In this document: in pieces, positions 4,504 through 63,774 of the stretch
Position numbering within the stretch: position 1 is the first letter of the stretch
Layout: each line of letters opens with the position of its first letter
Virus record (IMG/VR): IMGVR_UViG_3300033463_000004
Location: 32,001-96,000 of that record
Source of the DNA: a virus
Taxonomy: Duplodnaviria; Caudoviricetes
Reading direction: 5' to 3' (one strand)
DNA: 64,000 nucleotides
The notes under the pieces: model-generated
The model's input: the letters and a program-made list of their open reading frames with translations, nothing else
What the model was told of the DNA's origin: nothing
Databases searched by the model: none
Position numbers and translations under genes: made by a program

Positions 4504-4511
4504 ACGGAATG

Positions 4512-4648
4512 ATAATCCGGAATGTTCCTTCTCCGTTTTCATACAAGGTTTGGCCGCCTTGTTTTCGCCGTAAGCGGGACGGCGATTTGCTGTGTTTTCC
4601 TCCTTGAGAACAGTGCATAATACACCATTCGAAAACATTCCGGATTAT
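4512..4648 (+). ncRNA. candidate structured RNA (closing stem plus three internal hairpins)
   Basis: Perfect 15-bp inverted repeat ATAATCCGGAATGTT (4512-4526) / AACATTCCGGATTAT (4634-4648). It encloses hairpins ACAAGG..CCTTGT, TCGCCGT..ACGGCGA and GTTTTC-CTCCTT-GAGAAC. Located between the helicase stop and a terminator. Confidence 0.5.
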
Positions 4649-4658
4649 TTGATAATTT

Positions 4659-4682
4659 ATGTGGGGGCGAAAGCCCCCACAT
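4659..4682. terminator. intrinsic terminator hairpin (GGGGGC-GAAA-GCCCCC)
   Basis: ATGTGGGGGC GAAA GCCCCCACAT; member of the window-wide terminator family. Confidence 0.8.
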
Positions 4683-15189: not shown

Positions 15190-15203
15190 TTCTTTGTTCT
15201 TAT

Positions 15204-15386
15204 AATGAATAAAATGAGACCCATGAAGAACTTACGTCACCACAGGAGGTGACGATCATGTCTGAAATCGTTATTATACGGATTCCTCAAGGAACAGAGA
15301 TCATTTGTGAGTAACGTTCACAAATAAAACACAAACCACCATCTACAACTTAGGTGATATACTTCATGGATCTCATTTTATTCATT
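15204..15386. ncRNA. structured element closed by a 25-bp inverted repeat (candidate sRNA or structured mRNA for an 18-aa peptide)
   Basis: AATGAATAAAATGAGACCCATGAAG (15204-15228) pairs with CTTCATGGATCTCATTTTATTCATT (15362-15386) with 1 mismatch. Internal hairpin CGTCACC-ACAGGA-GGTGACG. Lies alone between two terminators. Confidence 0.5.
15258..15314 (+). CDS. possible 18-aa micro-peptide MSEIVIIRIPQGTEIICE
   Basis: Perfect AGGAGGTGA RBS upstream of the ATG, but the RBS is partly sequestered in a hairpin. Confidence 0.3.
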   Translation: MSEIVIIRIPQGTEIICE

Positions 15387-15411
15387 GTATCAAAGTTATT
15401 ACAATATAAAA

Positions 15412-23531: not shown

Positions 23532-23543
23532 TACAAAAACGTT
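23532..23543 (-). promoter_or_regulatory. putative late promoter AACG-N6-TA
   Basis: Minus strand AACG TTTTTG TA, about 28 nt upstream of the beta' start. Confidence 0.4.
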
Positions 23544-23550
23544 TTTAATA

Positions 23551-23717
23551 TAAAAAATAAGTGTGCAGGGGCCGAAGCCCCTGCAAGAGAAAATGAGGAA
23601 GTCTGTCATGTCAAACCGAGAAAACATGACGAAATGGAGAATAATCCAGCGTGGATACAATGGATTGGAAGATTGTCTTTTCGGCAAAAGACAATCTGGT
23701 TCATCATACAATGAACT
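23551..23717 (-). ncRNA. candidate ~170-nt sRNA: four hairpins plus a UUCG terminator
   Basis: Late-type motif GACA-N6-TA at 23718-23729. Hairpins GTTCAT/ATGAAC, AGATTGTCTTTT/AAAAGACAATCT (perfect 12 bp), AATCCA/TGGATT, GTCATGT/ACATGAC. Ends in TGCAGGGGC-TTCG-GCCCCTGCA plus a U-rich tail. Confidence 0.5.
23564..23585 (-). terminator. intrinsic terminator with C(UUCG)G loop on the minus strand
   Basis: Plus strand TGCAGGGGC CGAA GCCCCTGCA, preceded by an A-rich run. Confidence 0.8.
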
Positions 23718-23734
23718 TATTTTTTTGTCATTTA

Positions 23735-40789: not shown

Positions 40790-40806
40790 AAGAAAGGGTG
40801 AATGAT

Positions 40807-43800
40807 ATGCATGAATTTGGAATTGCAAAAAAATCTATATATGATGAGCATCCTAAATTAAAAGAATTTGAAGAAAATTATAAGAAAACACATCCGGGTG
40901 TTGATATTAACACCAAAAATCTATATATCGTTCAATCTGTGAACCGTGATGGCGTCGTGACATCTGAACAATATGGTTTGAATCTTATAACAGACGCCGG
41001 ATTTGATCAAATTATCTCTAATTATTCACCTAGCTCTGAGACATTTAGAAAAGCAATACGTCTGTTAGAAGGTGTACCAATAGCCGAAGCTCCAACAGTA
41101 TTGACATCTACCATTCCGTCATATACACGAAGAATTCAAACATCAACCATGTCTGGTAATAATAATTATTATGCATTGCAATATAATTCTGAAACTGGTG
41201 TGATATCTCAAAGGATTAATCAATGGGTATGGGAATTTGATTATAATGTGACTGGATATTTACCAGATGGGACATCAGTTTCAATAGATAATGATTTTAC
41301 TGCAAATTGTCTTTATATGTATAATCCAGATTATCCCGACTGGTGTCCTACTGGAATAATATCAACATATGAAGCAGATGGTATGCCAGCTCCAATTATT
41401 AAACATCCAAACGAAAAATTATTTATAACATTTTATGCAACAGGATCTATTCATGAAGATGTTATAAATGATGCGTACGATGATGAAATATATTTTGCCG
41501 TTAATCCTGGAAAGATTTCTAATATTGCATGGGGTTATAGTCATTCTGGATATAATCGTGTTAATTCTCCTTTTGTGCATGCACAATGGTTAGGACCGGT
41601 TTATAAATCATATGCTTTGTCATCAGGAAGCACTAACACATATGTTGATATAAGTTGTAATGAGACTGGTCAACGATTTATCATGGGCAACGGTGAAGGA
41701 TATCGATATGGTCGTCAAAATATGACTTATGTTTTATTAGACCCGCGTGTTGCGTTTACCATGGTAGATTATCGATGGGGACATCGATATTATACCAGCT
41801 GGGATGATGCACATGTCATCAAATGTATATCGGTGGAACGTTTGGATACCCCAGAAGAATTATCAACAAATTTTGGATACACGAACAGAAATGACTCTTC
41901 ACAAATTTCAAATCTATTTGCATTGAAAGCATTTAACACACTTTACCCACTAGGAATTTTACCAGCAGCCGATTTCTCCATCACGTCCATCAAAGGATAT
42001 AATTACATATCGAAAGCCTTTGATATTGATATTTCATACATCAATAGACCTAATGCATATTATAATAACCCATTTATTACATCGGCTGGTATGGCAATCT
42101 CTGTAGCTGGTGCGCCCAGTGGTACATATTATTTATATATCAATCAGCGTGCAAAACAACTCAACAATGGTTTACAACCAGTACCGATTACTGGAATATC
42201 ATTGGACACATCAAGAACTGTTTATGTTGCAGATAAATATTGGGATTTTTCAACTTGGTCTATTGTGACAAATCCAAGTTCAATCCCACAAGCGTTACAA
42301 AACAAAAAGTATTTCATGTTGAAAGATGGTATAGCAATTATCACACCAACATATGATCAACAAGTACATGAATTGGATGTTGGTTCAGAATACACAGTAC
42401 TAAACACGCCCACAGATTCTATTCATGGATGGTATCGCGGATATAAAACATTACACAATCTGACAGACAATTGGATTCTTGTACAAGATTATTTGTTATT
42501 TATGGATCCAACAGGAAAAGATGTTCAATATAAATATAAACTCGAAGGTCCCGAATATGCTGTGTGGTCAAAAATATCTGACGCAGTATGGAATCAAGAT
42601 TATGCAAGCCTTTACATATATTCAAATGGTGAATATGTATTGAATACAAATCCGACATACAGTTCTGGAACAACGTACTACACAACGGCAATTGATCCAT
42701 ATACCATTAGATATAATTATGGTAATAAGATTCTTGTTGCGACGATGGTTACACGCGGTAACGATTCATATCCAGCAAAGGTAAGAATCTATACAATCAC
42801 ATCAGCATCATCTGCACCGACATATCAAGATATTACAATCGACACAAACACAACCGATCGGTCATATACTGGTCAATATACATTCTCTTCAAATGGATAT
42901 TTTGTTATCCAAGATGAACATACACATTGTGCAAACATTATTAAAATTTCCGATGGCACTGTTACAAAACTCGAGAATGTCAGTAATTGTTATGCATTGG
43001 AATATTCCAATAAATGTGTGTATTTCCGATATGGTTCATCACCGTTAACATGGGATGTTTACAATATGCAAACAAATACAGTTGAAGGTTCTTTTGTATT
43101 ACCGGATGAATATTCTAATGTCACATATATGTGCGGGTGGCATGAATATTTGTATTTGCAATCATATATCAATCCAAACTATTTTGTTCATATTATAAAT
43201 ACAAATGATTGTTCAATCCACATTGTCGATGGTATGACATTCAATAATCAATTCACATCATATAGGAGAAATAACAATTCAGTTGATTCTCGTTTATATC
43301 GTTTGAATCGAATTAATAACATAAAATTCCATTCGGATTTTATGATCATTGATTGTTTACCAATGAATCAATGGTATATGGATGATGTGTCTCCTAAATT
43401 TATTAAGTATACAGAACCTGAAAAAACATATTGGTTGTACAAATATGGCGATCGAAATGAACGTCAAGTTGATAACTTGTATGAAAAGAACCATTATTAT
43501 TGTACTACAGCACGATTAGGTTCAACAATTCTGGAAGTTCAACAATCAGTGTCTCAATCAAAATTATTATTAATTGATGTCGCTGGACGTTTTTCAGAAC
43601 GGTATGATGGTTCTGTTGATTTTGTTTCTAATTCAAATACCGATTGGCGGGCTGGTGTTCTTGATATAGGATATCGGATAGATAATCCTTCAGATGAACC
43701 TCTCAATGCGGTTTGTTATCATTGGAACAAAATTCAAATGGATAGTACATATGCGTCCGGTGGTATTGCATATTGGAAAAATGGAATTATCATATTTGAT

Positions 43801-44391
43801 ACTAATATGGCTGGTGTATGGTATCCTCTTGAGTGGTTTATCAACTTCAAGATTACAGGAACAACACGCACAATTCAAGCATACAATAATCCGAAGAAAA
43901 TTGGACATGCTTCCATGACGATGTTTTCAACAAACCGTGGAATAATTCAGCATACATCACCACCGACATCAACAGGCGATCTCCATTATGTATTTAAACA
44001 TGATTCATGGGGATATAGTGACTCAAATCAAAATAGTATATTCTGGGGAAAAATTCTAAAAGGTGAGATATTGGGACCATATGCTGCACAATATGATTTG
44101 TTAGATGGAGAATCATTATCAATCGAAATCACACCTGCAGCCGGATTTGAATTCTTATCCGGTACATTTTTATGGTGGATAGAAGAAAAGCAACTCAATT
44201 ATGACGCAAATGGTGATTATGTAAGTTATTCAAATAAATGGTCTTCCTCTGTGTGTAATGCAACTGACAGCATATCTGGTCCATCTCGTGACTTAACAAA
44301 CATTGGTATATGTATTGCAACAAACTCTAGCCAAATCACATGGTTAGAGCCAACATACATTCAATCAATCAGAATAACGAAATCTAGTTAA
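40807..44391 (+). CDS. tail spike / receptor-binding protein paralogue B (with C-terminal extension)
   Basis: Paralogous blocks with 37643-40264; start probably ATG 40807 behind GAAAGGGTG (track start 40798). Confidence 0.65.
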   Translation: MHEFGIAKKSIYDEHPKLKEFEENYKKTHPGVDINTKNLYIVQSVNRDGVVTSEQYGLNLITDAGFDQIISNYSPSSETFRKAIRLLEGVPIAEAPTVLTSTIPSYTRRIQTSTMSGNNNYYALQYNSETGVISQRINQWVWEFDYNVTGYLPDGTSVSIDNDFTANCLYMYNPDYPDWCPTGIISTYEADGMPAPIIKHPNEKLFITFYATGSIHEDVINDAYDDEIYFAVNPGKISNIAWGYSHSGYNRVNSPFVHAQWLGPVYKSYALSSGSTNTYVDISCNETGQRFIMGNGEGYRYGRQNMTYVLLDPRVAFTMVDYRWGHRYYTSWDDAHVIKCISVERLDTPEELSTNFGYTNRNDSSQISNLFALKAFNTLYPLGILPAADFSITSIKGYNYISKAFDIDISYINRPNAYYNNPFITSAGMAISVAGAPSGTYYLYINQRAKQLNNGLQPVPITGISLDTSRTVYVADKYWDFSTWSIVTNPSSIPQALQNKKYFMLKDGIAIITPTYDQQVHELDVGSEYTVLNTPTDSIHGWYRGYKTLHNLTDNWILVQDYLLFMDPTGKDVQYKYKLEGPEYAVWSKISDAVWNQDYASLYIYSNGEYVLNTNPTYSSGTTYYTTAIDPYTIRYNYGNKILVATMVTRGNDSYPAKVRIYTITSASSAPTYQDITIDTNTTDRSYTGQYTFSSNGYFVIQDEHTHCANIIKISDGTVTKLENVSNCYALEYSNKCVYFRYGSSPLTWDVYNMQTNTVEGSFVLPDEYSNVTYMCGWHEYLYLQSYINPNYFVHIINTNDCSIHIVDGMTFNNQFTSYRRNNNSVDSRLYRLNRINNIKFHSDFMIIDCLPMNQWYMDDVSPKFIKYTEPEKTYWLYKYGDRNERQVDNLYEKNHYYCTTARLGSTILEVQQSVSQSKLLLIDVAGRFSERYDGSVDFVSNSNTDWRAGVLDIGYRIDNPSDEPLNAVCYHWNKIQMDSTYASGGIAYWKNGIIIFDTNMAGVWYPLEWFINFKITGTTRTIQAYNNPKKIGHASMTMFSTNRGIIQHTSPPTSTGDLHYVFKHDSWGYSDSNQNSIFWGKILKGEILGPYAAQYDLLDGESLSIEITPAAGFEFLSGTFLWWIEEKQLNYDANGDYVSYSNKWSSSVCNATDSISGPSRDLTNIGICIATNSSQITWLEPTYIQSIRITKSS

Positions 44392-44406: not shown

Positions 44407-44421
44407 CACATATATATGATT
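44407..44421 (+). promoter_or_regulatory. putative early promoter CACATATATATGATT
   Basis: Consensus match; no convincing RBS-led ORF downstream. Confidence 0.55.
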
Positions 44422-44644
44422 ATTACGAACATGAGAGATGATGTGTTTCGGGATAAAGGTATCTAAACGGCCTCCCGAGTGTCCTCCCTATGACAGCGCA
44501 CAAGATTGCATCTCTCTGTTCGCAATAATAAATGCATGAATGAAAAACGAGTTCTGATATTTACAATCCATCGTACAGATGGACATGTCGTACGGACATG
44601 GTGAATTGATTGCTCGTATTTTCATTCATGTATTCATTTTTTTT
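44419..44644 (+). ncRNA. candidate two-domain structured ncRNA (~225 nt)
   Basis: Stem 44419-44440 / 44509-44529 encloses TCGGGA..TCCCGA and TGTC-CTCCCTAT-GACA. Stem 44531-44551 / 44613-44634 encloses TCCATC-GTACA-GATGGA and CATGTC-GTACG-GACATG. A T-run follows. Confidence 0.6.
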
Positions 44645-44652
44645 GATGATGA

Positions 44653-44682
44653 AATGATGTGGGGCTTTCGCCCCACATCATT
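44653..44682. terminator. intrinsic terminator (ends the minus-strand baseplate gene)
   Basis: AATGATGTGGGGC TTTC GCCCCACATCATT. Confidence 0.85.
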
Positions 44683-44690
44683 ATCATTCA

Positions 44691-47600
44691 TCATATCAGA
44701 TTTAAAACAATATTCGAATCAGACAATACGAACATTTCCGGAACATATCTTTCTAATTCATTCTTCGGCATATCATCCAATTCATCCCATCGTTGGACAA
44801 TCGCTTGATAATCAGCGTTCATATAATGTCCACCAATGATATTCTTCTGGTTGGTATACCAACCTTTGAATTTCAAATATGCAACATTAGGATGTTCTTC
44901 CAGTTGTTGGATCAATTGTGAAATGTAAATGTTATTATCCATCGATATCATATCAACTGGGGTATGTACAGTTGTGATGCGGTTGAAATATGATTTGATC
45001 ATTGTACGAATTTCATTCAATGTATTGGTTGATAAACCTGGATTATACAATTTCAAATCAAATTCGATTTGTACATCCAAATCTGGCCAGAATGTTGGTG
45101 GAGTGAGATTCTTATCAACATCCGCAACATAAGAATGCGGTAAACCATATGTTGCAATCAGTTTGCAATCAAGATAATTATTACCTTCCAAACGTTTGAA
45201 GATAACCGGCTCAATTGCTTTGTGAACTTGTGTAAATGCGGAAACAAACGATGCAAATACATCAGAGTTCATCAACTTTGATTGAACAAATGGAACGAGT
45301 TGAACTTCCATTGCACTGTTGACAGATGTTTGTGAGAAGATATCTTCAACTTCACTTGGATAGATTGAAATATTATTGTAGACACGGTCCCAATCAATGT
45401 CACCAGAATATTGTGACTCTATAATATTTGCTAGGGTCATTCTTAATTCTGTCATGTATCCAGTTGAAATATCAGGTACTTCAGGATTGCCCGCATAAAT
45501 CGTGATAATATTATCCAAAGTTGCATTGCAATCGGAAGCAATCATTTGGATATCATGGAATGTCAAACCAGAATCATCAATCGTTCCAGTAATGATATGA
45601 TATGCATACTGTTTAATGGTATACATGTTATTCACATTCGGATCATATTCACACAGTTTCATCAAAGAATCAAATGCAGCCATCTGAACTTCTGAAGGTT
45701 GTTGATATTCACCAAACTTAACAACACTTCTCATTTCTTTCAGTTCTTGAATAAATGAGAAATCATCAACATTCCATCTATCTTGCAAACGGAATCCCTT
45801 GAATGACTCATCACCTTCAATCGGTGATACCAATGTTGGATCGGTTGATTTAAACAGAATATAGATCGTTAATTCTGGATATGTCGCATCAATTGTTACA
45901 ATCTTTGAATCAACTGCAGACACCCAAGAACCACCACCGTATTCTGTTGATGCAATTTTGATGCGATTATCGACATCAACCATTTTATTCAATGGATAAA
46001 TTTGTGCATCAAATCGAATACTACCATCAGATTCAATCTGAACTGGTTCCATTTCAACGCGACCAGTGACAACACCATCAACCTTTGCTTCCAAAACAAT
46101 ACGCATATTGTTTTCTTCCATTGCAAGTTGTTCTGATTCAAAATAGAACATCGGAACATTCGTATTTTCCAATAATACAGACAATGGCATTTTATAATAT
46201 GCAACAGCCGCTTCAGATGCAGTCGGTCTCATATCAGCATAGAATACAACACCATTTCCTGATACATCATTCAGATTAAATGTGACTGTTCCATCATTAT
46301 TATCGATTGGAGTATATGGTGTATAAATATTTGCAGAATTTGCAATCTGATATTGAACCACAACACCGTCATCGTATTTCAACTGGAAATATATAGTGTC
46401 TTGATAACTCTTTCCAATACGATACAAACGTGTTTCACCATATTTGGTTAAACTTGTGCTGAATACTTCATCAGATGTTGTCATGGAAACAAGTTTACCA
46501 GTAGGCTGATCATCTTTCAGACGGAGTTCATAATAATTCTGGGATGCGACACGTTTGAATGAAATCGGATCGTCATCAACGACATTTGGATATACATGTA
46601 TATCAGTATCTCCTGTTACTTTGACAGCTTCCCATGGACCGTGTTCACCCCATAAAGCATCCGTACCAAGAACTTGCTTAAAACTACTGCTGACAGTAAT
46701 TGGATATTCTTTTTTCTCACTACCAGAATAGTCCTCAATTCTGAGACCGCGCAAGTTCCACATACCATCAGATACACGAGTCTTTTCAGTTACACACAAA
46801 TATGTCTCTGATGGATTGAAAACGACATATTGTTGCTTTGGATCCTGAATCAGAATTGGAATCATCTTTGCATATAGATCAACAGGTTTTACAAAGTAAT
46901 TCCACATGATGTCTGTGAATGTCGGAGGTTCTGTTCCATTTCTGAAACGTTTTACAAAATCAGAACCAATGTAAGATGGTGCTTGGTTCGGAATAATAAC
47001 TGTCTCGATATTATAGTAATCCTTTTGATATGTACGAATGATATGTACAAATGAAGGTGTACCGTGATAAATAATACTCTTATCTTCATTACCAAGAATT
47101 GTATCTTGATATTCAAATGGAGTATTCACAATCGAAACCGTTGTCGTTTCATTAATCCACGGATTGAAGTATCCAATTGCAAACGGATACTTCTGAATAC
47201 GAATACCGAATGGATTTGCAAATAAGAAATCATCACCAACATTCACCGCAGTTGAAGCCGTTTCGACTTGCTCATTGGAATTCACAACCAATGGTTTTAC
47301 AGTATAACGATTGGATTCCTTGTTTGCATATACCCATGCCCAACCAGGTGGGATAATGATTTCATTTCCATTTGCAGAAATGATGTTATCATTACTATTG
47401 TAAAGAACTCGATATGGAATCTGCGCGTGTAATGTATTCGTACGATATACTTCACCATCTGGATCAGTCAACGCAATAAATCCACTCCAAATTCTACCCC
47501 ATGGATCATCTCTTCGTTTAAAGAAGAATGGATATAGAATTCGTTTGAAAAAGAATGTCTTAAACCATTCATAGATATCATGATCTGATGAAATCACATT

Positions 47601-48695
47601 TGCAGTATTATATGCTTCAATGGTCTCACGACGCGTTGTCTCATTTGTTCCAATATTTGTACCAGCCTGGCTTCCAGACATAACAAACGCAGATTTTGTA
47701 ACGTTTCCATTGTTTGTGTACTTGTTTGTCGATGTAATAATTGAAACAGATTCTTCTGTTGTGAATGATGAAAAGTTTGCAGCTTCACCATGACATGTAT
47801 AGATTGTCACAACAAATGACGAATTCAGTTGTGGCACAAAATAACGATTACCATTCATTTGGAATTTAAAACGAATTGTCTGCGGCGAATCCATGATGTA
47901 ATGTACGTACGGAAGTTGATCCTTTACATCCGAATGGATTGCAAGAATATGATCACGATCAAGATATTGCTCGTTACCATCACCATCAATATATTTGATA
48001 TCAAATCCTGCAATATGATTTTGACATGTGATGACATAATCATCATTTGGAATTCCATTTGTCATATTATTGACAATTGTGTGAGTTTGTCTTTCAAACT
48101 CAGACATTGTTACAAATATATGCAACCATTCTGATGATGTTCTGTAAAGAATATATGGTTTTTTGTTTACTGCAATCGAATTTTGTTCATCTGTATTAAT
48201 GTATTGAACATTCCAAACTGGATTCTCCGGATTGGTATATTGAATCAATACATCATAATCCAATGAATAAATCGAACCATTTGCAAGATTAATTTTCGTA
48301 TTTTTATCTAATACGAATTCGTACAAATTTCTATGCTGCGGGTTTTCTTTTGCATTTTTGAACAAATCCGACAACTTCAATTCGATCATAAAATTACATA
48401 CAGACGGAATTGCATATGAATAACCGATGTTGAAGATTGCTGCATTTGCATAAATGGAATCCGATAAAACTGCTTTTGTGATGAAAGATTCATTCAGATA
48501 AAATGATGAAGTAAATGCCAAATTTTCTAATGCTTGCGACATATATTCAGATACAACAGAGAAGAAACCACTGTTCAAATTGTTCAATGGTATATCATGG
48601 AATACACGTGGCATCAAAACATTCGCAATATACTTTTTGATTTGTGAATCATCCGAATAATTATTCAACACAATATTCGTGTCTTTCGTTGCCAT
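44691..48695 (-). CDS. baseplate wedge protein (T4 gp6 / baseplate-J-like)
   Basis: 1334 aa. N-terminal ESFITKAVLSDSIYANAA, IYTCHGEAANF, KRRDD; C-terminal IKSYF...IYISQLIQQLE. AGGAGG RBS. Confidence 0.75.
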   Translation of the reverse strand: MATKDTNIVLNNYSDDSQIKKYIANVLMPRVFHDIPLNNLNSGFFSVVSEYMSQALENLAFTSSFYLNESFITKAVLSDSIYANAAIFNIGYSYAIPSVCNFMIELKLSDLFKNAKENPQHRNLYEFVLDKNTKINLANGSIYSLDYDVLIQYTNPENPVWNVQYINTDEQNSIAVNKKPYILYRTSSEWLHIFVTMSEFERQTHTIVNNMTNGIPNDDYVITCQNHIAGFDIKYIDGDGNEQYLDRDHILAIHSDVKDQLPYVHYIMDSPQTIRFKFQMNGNRYFVPQLNSSFVVTIYTCHGEAANFSSFTTEESVSIITSTNKYTNNGNVTKSAFVMSGSQAGTNIGTNETTRRETIEAYNTANVISSDHDIYEWFKTFFFKRILYPFFFKRRDDPWGRIWSGFIALTDPDGEVYRTNTLHAQIPYRVLYNSNDNIISANGNEIIIPPGWAWVYANKESNRYTVKPLVVNSNEQVETASTAVNVGDDFLFANPFGIRIQKYPFAIGYFNPWINETTTVSIVNTPFEYQDTILGNEDKSIIYHGTPSFVHIIRTYQKDYYNIETVIIPNQAPSYIGSDFVKRFRNGTEPPTFTDIMWNYFVKPVDLYAKMIPILIQDPKQQYVVFNPSETYLCVTEKTRVSDGMWNLRGLRIEDYSGSEKKEYPITVSSSFKQVLGTDALWGEHGPWEAVKVTGDTDIHVYPNVVDDDPISFKRVASQNYYELRLKDDQPTGKLVSMTTSDEVFSTSLTKYGETRLYRIGKSYQDTIYFQLKYDDGVVVQYQIANSANIYTPYTPIDNNDGTVTFNLNDVSGNGVVFYADMRPTASEAAVAYYKMPLSVLLENTNVPMFYFESEQLAMEENNMRIVLEAKVDGVVTGRVEMEPVQIESDGSIRFDAQIYPLNKMVDVDNRIKIASTEYGGGSWVSAVDSKIVTIDATYPELTIYILFKSTDPTLVSPIEGDESFKGFRLQDRWNVDDFSFIQELKEMRSVVKFGEYQQPSEVQMAAFDSLMKLCEYDPNVNNMYTIKQYAYHIITGTIDDSGLTFHDIQMIASDCNATLDNIITIYAGNPEVPDISTGYMTELRMTLANIIESQYSGDIDWDRVYNNISIYPSEVEDIFSQTSVNSAMEVQLVPFVQSKLMNSDVFASFVSAFTQVHKAIEPVIFKRLEGNNYLDCKLIATYGLPHSYVADVDKNLTPPTFWPDLDVQIEFDLKLYNPGLSTNTLNEIRTMIKSYFNRITTVHTPVDMISMDNNIYISQLIQQLEEHPNVAYLKFKGWYTNQKNIIGGHYMNADYQAIVQRWDELDDMPKNELERYVPEMFVLSDSNIVLNLI

Positions 48696-63578: not shown

Positions 63579-63630
63579 CATTTGAACAGGAACGGAGATA
63601 CTGTTCAAATATACACTTGGAGGTGATAAT

Positions 63631-63774
63631 ATGGATGACATGCAGAGTCGCATAGCGACACGTTTGGATTTTGTTGAATCCAAACAGACAGAAACGTCTT
63701 CGGAATTTGTATGTAACGATCGGAACGTCGTGAGACAAATTTTCAAGACCATCAAACGTCTCTATCATATTTGA
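63631..63774 (+). CDS. 47-aa early micro-protein (not in the ORF track)
   Basis: GGAGGTGA RBS; MDDMQSRIATRLDFVESKQTETSSEFVCNDRNVVRQIFKTIKRLYHI; has its own promoter and terminator. Confidence 0.6.
   Translation: MDDMQSRIATRLDFVESKQTETSSEFVCNDRNVVRQIFKTIKRLYHI

Follow-up and report, generated by a model that had tools for sequence, protein, structure and literature searches.

Small RNAs have been described from jumbo phages. These include misc_4 of phiR1-37, which is free-standing and for which mRNA targets were predicted (PMC4848604), and sRNAs reported from 201phi2-1 and phiKZ, of which the conserved 201phi2-1 sRNA is derived from a 5'-UTR (PMC11512511). For phiKZ, a 2026 review mentions no more than the expression of non-coding RNAs with a suggested regulatory role. 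Phage RNAs that sequester host proteins are also on record, namely the Racrs (PMC10651486) and the viral sgRNAs (vsgRNAs; 10.64898/2026.06.01.729453). For AR9, early transcription starts were mapped to AAATATATATTAT-6N-G+1 (PMC5312081).

The window analyzed here, a stretch of 64,000 nucleotides, is part of a 262,694-base (263-kb) virus record, genome G000. Marker-gene relatives, topoisomerase and RNA polymerase pieces indicate that G000 is an AR9/phiR1-37-like jumbo phage: among cultured phages its topoisomerase is nearest to that of AR9/PBS1, and the genome has two beta-like and one beta'-like RNA polymerase matches. We take its habitat to be the rumen, judging by the project accessions of its relatives. 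The contig of one homolog of the RNA described below was binned in a Bacteroidales MAG; we distrust this host assignment given the phage's use of strong Shine-Dalgarno sequences, which are atypical of the phylum of the Bacteroidales. TAG and CTA are about 4-fold depleted in G000 and five relatives, CTAG is 12-fold depleted in G000, and none of 161 ORFs longer than 150 aa has a TAG stop.

The window holds an element that is very probably a non-coding RNA gene; it fills the 299 bp that separate a 1197-aa gene from the convergent 1334-aa gene. The features of this locus, in window coordinates, are:

40798-44391, plus strand: 1197-aa gene, a neighbor only, upstream of the RNA and without a Pfam or PHROG match
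44410-44426, plus strand: AR9-type early (virion RNA polymerase) promoter, a box at 44410-44420 and a 6-nt spacer, assigned by fit to the AR9 consensus
44427-44644, plus strand: predicted non-coding RNA, 218 nt, from G+1 to U8, delimited by promoter rule, fold and homologs
44427-44521, plus strand: domain 1, the conserved core, 95 nt, a three-way junction
44427-44440/44509-44521, plus strand: P1, the transcribed closing stem, 13 bp with one bulge, starting from +1
44442-44446/44498-44502, plus strand: P2, 35/35 cells paired in the hand-curated alignment, two-sided changes in 3/5 columns
44448-44453/44473-44478, plus strand: P3, the TCGGGA/TCCCGA arm, 28/28 cells paired in the same hand-curated alignment, two-sided changes in 2/4 columns
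44454-44457, plus strand: A-rich bulge of the P3 arm, between P3 and P3a
above the A-rich bulge, plus strand: P3a, 21/21 cells paired (hand-curated alignment), two-sided changes in 3/3 columns
44461-44469, plus strand: apical loop L3a with the RUCURA motif, in all seven full homologs
44480-44483/44492-44495, plus strand: P4, with support limited to the group of the window, L009 and L028
44503-44508, plus strand: AGAUUG bulge between P2 and P1, invariant in 8/8 sequences
44531-44634, plus strand: domain 2, comprising the P5 stem, an internal loop, P6 and a junction with twin hairpins
44531-44552/44612-44634, plus strand: P5, the domain-2 stem, 22 bp with one bulge
44567-44600, plus strand: twin hairpins P7/P8 with C-GNACR-G loops (GUACA and GUACG in the window), from homolog loop comparison
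44567-44583 and 44584-44600, plus strand: the individual twin hairpins, directly located
44637-44644, plus strand: U8 run behind P5, the predicted 3' terminus
44653-44682, no strand assigned: GC-rich hairpin of a genome-wide terminator-like family, outside the RNA
44691-48695, minus strand: conserved 1334-aa gene, convergent, related to phiR1-37 g207 and used as locus marker

The 1334-aa gene, presumably of a baseplate-like type, has relatives in phiR1-37 and in Staphylococcus jumbo phages. The hairpin type at 44653-44682 recurs at many gene ends and is present at the RNA locus in RNA-less relatives.

The first-pass annotation had placed a consensus early promoter at 44407-44421 and a transcription start near 44420. 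The promoter stands as a genuine phage motif, with an AR9 fit and 19 matches in G000 (18 intergenic), but its box, which departs from the AR9 core at one position, is 44410-44420, and by the AR9 rule +1 would be G44427. Box, 6-nt spacer and G+1 are present before all full homologs. Only one of the 19 matches lacks an RBS-led ORF, and it is that of the RNA unit; the 47-aa ORF behind the match at 63584 was counted as RBS-led in this census. A single ORF-less match likewise occurs in G001 (1/20) and in G002 (1/8); in the genomes of L009 and L010 the RNA is again the sole ORF-less early match. A sigma-70 site at the RNA promoter was rejected, the sequence not being that of sigma-70. The T-run proposed as the end of the unit is T8, and a U-run of at least six follows the domain-2 stem in all homologs. 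A paired 5' end is frequent among early transcripts of these phages and is not peculiar to this RNA.

Promoter census, homologs, covariation and the lack of a conserved ORF together support the earlier proposal of a stand-alone early non-coding RNA. Rfam 15, which covers riboswitches, ribozymes, 6S, SRP, RNase P, tmRNA, ROOL, GOLLD, CRISPR repeats and tracrRNA, returned no family at gathering score in the window (best weak hits, 24.7 bits against a cut-off of 80) and no match in four homologs, and ARAGORN made no call in the window. A DNA match to the locus was absent from cultured phages, no second copy was found within G000 by BLAST or by both models, and no repeat family was found at the locus. 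No published description of this RNA was found in a search to which candidate viral RNA lists outside Rfam did not belong. We conclude that, as far as sequence and model searches can tell, the RNA represents a new family of structured RNA, of a broad kind already known.

Like the sRNAs of phiR1-37 (misc_4), 201phi2-1 and phiKZ, the RNA is intergenic, ORF-less, within about 200-300 nt and from the same broad phage group. By covariance model it has no counterpart in phiR1-37, SA1 or AR9, the three genomes of cultured phages searched, and unlike the 5'-UTR-derived sRNA of 201phi2-1 it has its own promoter and end. As with the Racrs and viral sgRNAs, it is a phage-made non-coding RNA that could, by analogy, sequester a host protein. 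It differs from them in having no solitary CRISPR repeat, no Rfam CRISPR or tracrRNA hit and no free 5' guide, P1 being paired from +1 in all homologs; its size is also about 220-280 nt, versus about 90 nt for vsgRNAs.

ROOL, named for the rumen, and GOLLD are likewise phage-associated and highly structured. Both are far longer than the present RNA, which has two simple domains and no Rfam match. The 6S, SRP, Y, tmRNA and RNase P RNAs are classes of stable structured RNA acting with protein; here, unlike in those classes, there is no Rfam or ARAGORN hit, and no pairing joins the 5' end to the 3' end. The S-domain loop of SRP RNA and the T-arm of tmRNA are also lacking, and the Ro60 gene expected with a Y RNA is missing from the carriers, TROVE being absent from phage genomes G000, G001, G014 and G002. 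The reverse transcriptase gene (RVT_1) to be expected beside a retron or DRT-type ncRNA was not found in the RNA-bearing genomes, and the neighbors of the RNA are unrelated large genes. The RNA-less sister genome G003 has TROVE-like and reverse-transcriptase genes (L188, L189) that are absent from the RNA-bearing genomes.

The 218-nt unit folds better than chance (z -5.97, 0/200 shuffles), as do the domains taken separately (z -7.7 for domain 2 and -2.4 for domain 1). The sense strand exceeds the antisense strand in fold and G-U pairs in all six homologs tested. Two adjacent domains of about 110 nt, each closed by a stem of about 21 bp with one bulge, had been described. This holds for domain 2 but not for domain 1, where the outer 8 bp of the proposed stem are promoter spacer and would not be transcribed. 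The TCGGGA/TCCCGA arm and the CUCCCUAU-loop hairpin reported for domain 1 were both recovered, as were the two abutting hairpins of domain 2.

Helices covary across the homologs, whereas the short motifs of loops and bulges are unchanged. For domain 1, 96% of cells pair in a model-fitted alignment and 23/31 pairs have two-sided changes, above all shuffles and slid controls; this alignment leans toward structure and four of its sequences are near-copies, so the figures are support and not a probability. The covariation sample comprises only three deep lineages, in alignments that are hand-curated or structure-fitted. Domain 1, with its UCURA, UGU and AGAUUG motifs, is the conserved core of the RNA as judged from these alignments. 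The UGU in its junction is invariant, and RUCURA is kept in L3a though CTA and TAG are about 4-fold depleted genome-wide. The AGAUUG bulge may pair with RUCU of L3a as a 4-bp pseudoknot; RUCU and AGAU are complementary in all homologs, with zero two-sided changes. Two other readings of the UCUAA sequence were discarded. An 11-nt tetraloop-receptor (UCUAA/UAUGA) fails because UAUGA is not kept. A mimic of an amber suppressor, with UCUAA as a CUA anticodon loop, conflicts with a loop of 9-15 nt and a purine before U, with the UCUGA of L035 and with long ORFs that are open in table 11.

Compensatory changes are found in P5-P8 among the window, L009 and L028. In L010, L022 and L035 the long stem of domain 2 and the U-run are kept and the interior is rebuilt; the twin hairpins are the variable part, with one hairpin in L010 and another layout in L022, L035 and L117. 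Hairpin loops across the homologs read GUACA/GUACG, GGACA/GUACG, GUACA/GCACA and GAACG, giving the consensus C-GNACR-G. The suggestion that the loop is kept while the stems differ is thus right for GNACR but not for the exact loop, and the selection on structure that it was taken to reflect is borne out by homologs and covariation. Kissing through a self-complementary GUAC is unsupported, because the palindrome is lost in relatives, whose GGACA, GCACA and GAACG loops are not self-complementary. A tertiary contact between a domain-2 loop and L3a is possible on the basis of complementarity. The match to the L3a region amounts to 5+5 bp in L009 and, including a two-sided change, to 4 bp in L028, and a different loop supplies 5-6 bp in L022, L035 and L117. 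The complementarity is not kept in register in the window.

Homologs were sought with the 1334-aa gene as locus marker. Six further full homologs (L009, L028, L010, L022, L035 and L117) and one partial homolog cut by a contig end (L033) were found. The full homologs have the promoter, G+1, two domains and the U-run, and are 219-280 nt long. RNA identity to L009 and L028 is 74-75%, compared with 44-52% at adjacent four-fold degenerate sites. In L010 the neighboring gene cluster points away from the intact RNA, so the RNA is not the 3' UTR of the upstream gene.

A quick marker-protein tree places all carriers in one 10-member clade (SH-aLRT 99), on three deep branches. The fourth branch of this clade (L011, L032 and L050) has no RNA at the locus, and by covariance model the RNA is absent from a 96%-complete genome of that branch and from 13 other relatives, many of them partial. 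No relocated copy was found behind the 23 promoter matches of G003. A loose motif scan of IMG/VR gave 19 other hits, each of which fold and model showed to be a chance match, and under strict filters no cellular homolog was found in 120 further genomes from a single bacterial order. The distribution appears accessory, as expected of a dispensable host-interaction gene.

We favor the reading that the RNA is a fold-based protein decoy or scaffold in early host takeover or counter-defence, with a probability of about 0.5. The early promoter, the sealed ends and the dispensability in a sister lineage argue for it. We infer the transcription, timing, tertiary contacts, partner and purpose of the RNA as follows. 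The virion RNA polymerase would start the RNA at G44427 once the DNA enters, in keeping with the AR9 rule, and would stop at the U-run behind the domain-2 stem. With its 5' end in a helix from +1 and its 3' end in a 22-bp stem, the transcript should be stable. It would act via shape and not via long base-pairing, with the RUCURA loop, AGAUUG bulge, UGU and GNACR loops forming tertiary contacts or a protein-binding surface, and would bind a protein as decoy or scaffold at early takeover or counter-defence. A candidate phage partner is a 198-aa early protein described below.

Because the helices vary and a few short unpaired motifs are fixed, we prefer an RNA read by its shape to an antisense sRNA acting in trans on mRNAs of host or phage, with which the CU-rich P4 loop, resembling an anti-Shine-Dalgarno sequence, might for instance pair. 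The P4 loop of the window is indeed CU-rich, and phiR1-37 misc_4 offers a precedent with predicted mRNA targets (PMC4848604). The CU tract is lost in relatives, however (CAACUAU in L009, UCACUAU in L028), and what is conserved of the unpaired sequence is dispersed in stretches of only 3-6 nt, so that we consider antisense action unlikely. Domain 1 is also a doubtful candidate for ligand binding or catalysis, whether as a ribozyme or as an aptamer that acts as a sponge for nucleotide signals; domain 2 would then be a stabilizing arm. The covarying three-way junction, invariant bulge and loop motifs and possible loop-bulge pseudoknot of domain 1 form an anatomy typical of aptamers and small ribozymes. 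Against this, Rfam gave no riboswitch or ribozyme match, weak ones included, there is no downstream gene to regulate, and the hammerhead core reading, like that of the 11-nt receptor, fails across homologs.

In a cis-acting unit, early transcription would have an insulating or dampening effect on the two convergent genes, with the stems as terminators or processing sites; this would explain why one and the same conserved gene always has its 3' end against the RNA and why the gap is convergent in most homologs. We give this little weight, since RNA-less relatives manage with a single GC hairpin, the RNA is intact in L010 despite the inverted neighbor, and termination does not need invariant loop motifs. 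Some phage origins consist of a promoter and an ORF-less structured tract, which this locus resembles; a DNA-level element or a replication primer of the origin R-loop type is nevertheless very improbable for a structure that is strand-specific, rich in G-U pairs, begins exactly at +1 and is absent from the 96%-complete sister genome. Hardly credible is a peptide product (the 86-aa ORF at 44579-44839 or a shorter one) or a silent unit. In the window the 86 codons form an open frame, but it has no RBS, crosses the T-run and the terminator hairpin and then runs antisense into the 1334-aa gene; the equivalent ATG yields just 22 codons in L009 and L028, and no RBS-led ORF is present in the unit. 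The frame is thus unconserved.

For a decoy or scaffold, one lead to a partner comes from co-occurrence:

genome positions 148981-149577 (L182:482-1078): 198-aa early protein with its own early promoter, at a fixed position beside a 640-aa gene

This family is present in exactly 4 of 21 genomes, the same four that bear the RNA. The lead is weak, because the pattern can be put down to roughly one gain and one loss, and about 25 other ORFs are distributed in a similar way. The family comprises about 23 clusters and includes a member branching outside the RNA clade. The protein is acidic-looking, and its two-domain alpha/beta model (pLDDT 86.8) found no clear match in a fold search (best Z 7.6); there was no Pfam match and no atlas feature hit. 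Lone RAMP-like proteins were rejected as partners, since the 241-aa ORF at 250102 is also in the RNA-less G003 and G011, and the 263-aa ORF at 221347 is only in G001.

In the RNA-less G003, the site of the 198-aa gene is occupied by another early gene, together with another early unit that has no RBS-led ORF. The latter (L126:8883-9448) is about 565 nt long, with an early promoter, multiple hairpins and a T8 end, and has no Rfam hit and no match in five related genomes. It is a long shot that the RNA and the 198-aa protein form a phage ribonucleoprotein of the infection's first minutes, whose domains dock by loop-loop contacts, and that the sister lineage swapped this pair for another early protein and the 565-nt RNA, as an interchangeable module of AR9-like jumbo phages, based on RNA, for host takeover or counter-defence.

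To our knowledge, phage RNAs with a defined fold are few, and almost none come from jumbo phages equipped with a polymerase of their own. The RNA offers a predictable start, a core supported by covariation and named invariant motifs, which make it suitable for synthesis, probing and use as a pull-down bait. Should it act as a decoy, it would lead to a host protein whose immediate neutralization is essential to rumen jumbo phages. The comparisons argue for a real, conserved and uncatalogued early non-coding RNA gene of one jumbo-phage clade; its reach is limited for now by the narrow range, the uncultured host and a function that we only infer. A wider set of such RNAs in the AR9-like group is possible, because relatives carry other ORF-less early units. 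Those of G003, G001 and G011 share no homology with the RNA at 44427-44644.

The unit of G011 (L171:7747-8110) is about 360 nt long, with many hairpins, a 7-codon RBS-led ORF, a likely H-type pseudoknot right before the T-run and no Rfam hit. In G001, an early promoter in a tRNA region (L150:7725-8200) precedes about 400 nt that are hairpin-rich and without an RBS-led ORF; the Rfam hits there are the nearby tRNAs only. Gaps of 360-520 bp between DHH-like and 640-aa genes (L190:7176-7696, L191:7529-7887, L197:3520-3936 and L198:3466-3893) do not hold the RNA studied here and may hold small ORFs or other RNAs. Within the window, structured gaps unlike the RNA at 44427-44644 are found at 4504-4660 (conserved in G001, 82%), 15191-15400 (with a partial second copy at genome positions 193300-193400) and 23541-23730 (conserved in G001, 70%). 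An unlisted 47-aa ORF at window positions 63631-63774 has a strong RBS, an early promoter ahead of it and two identical terminator-type hairpins flanking it.
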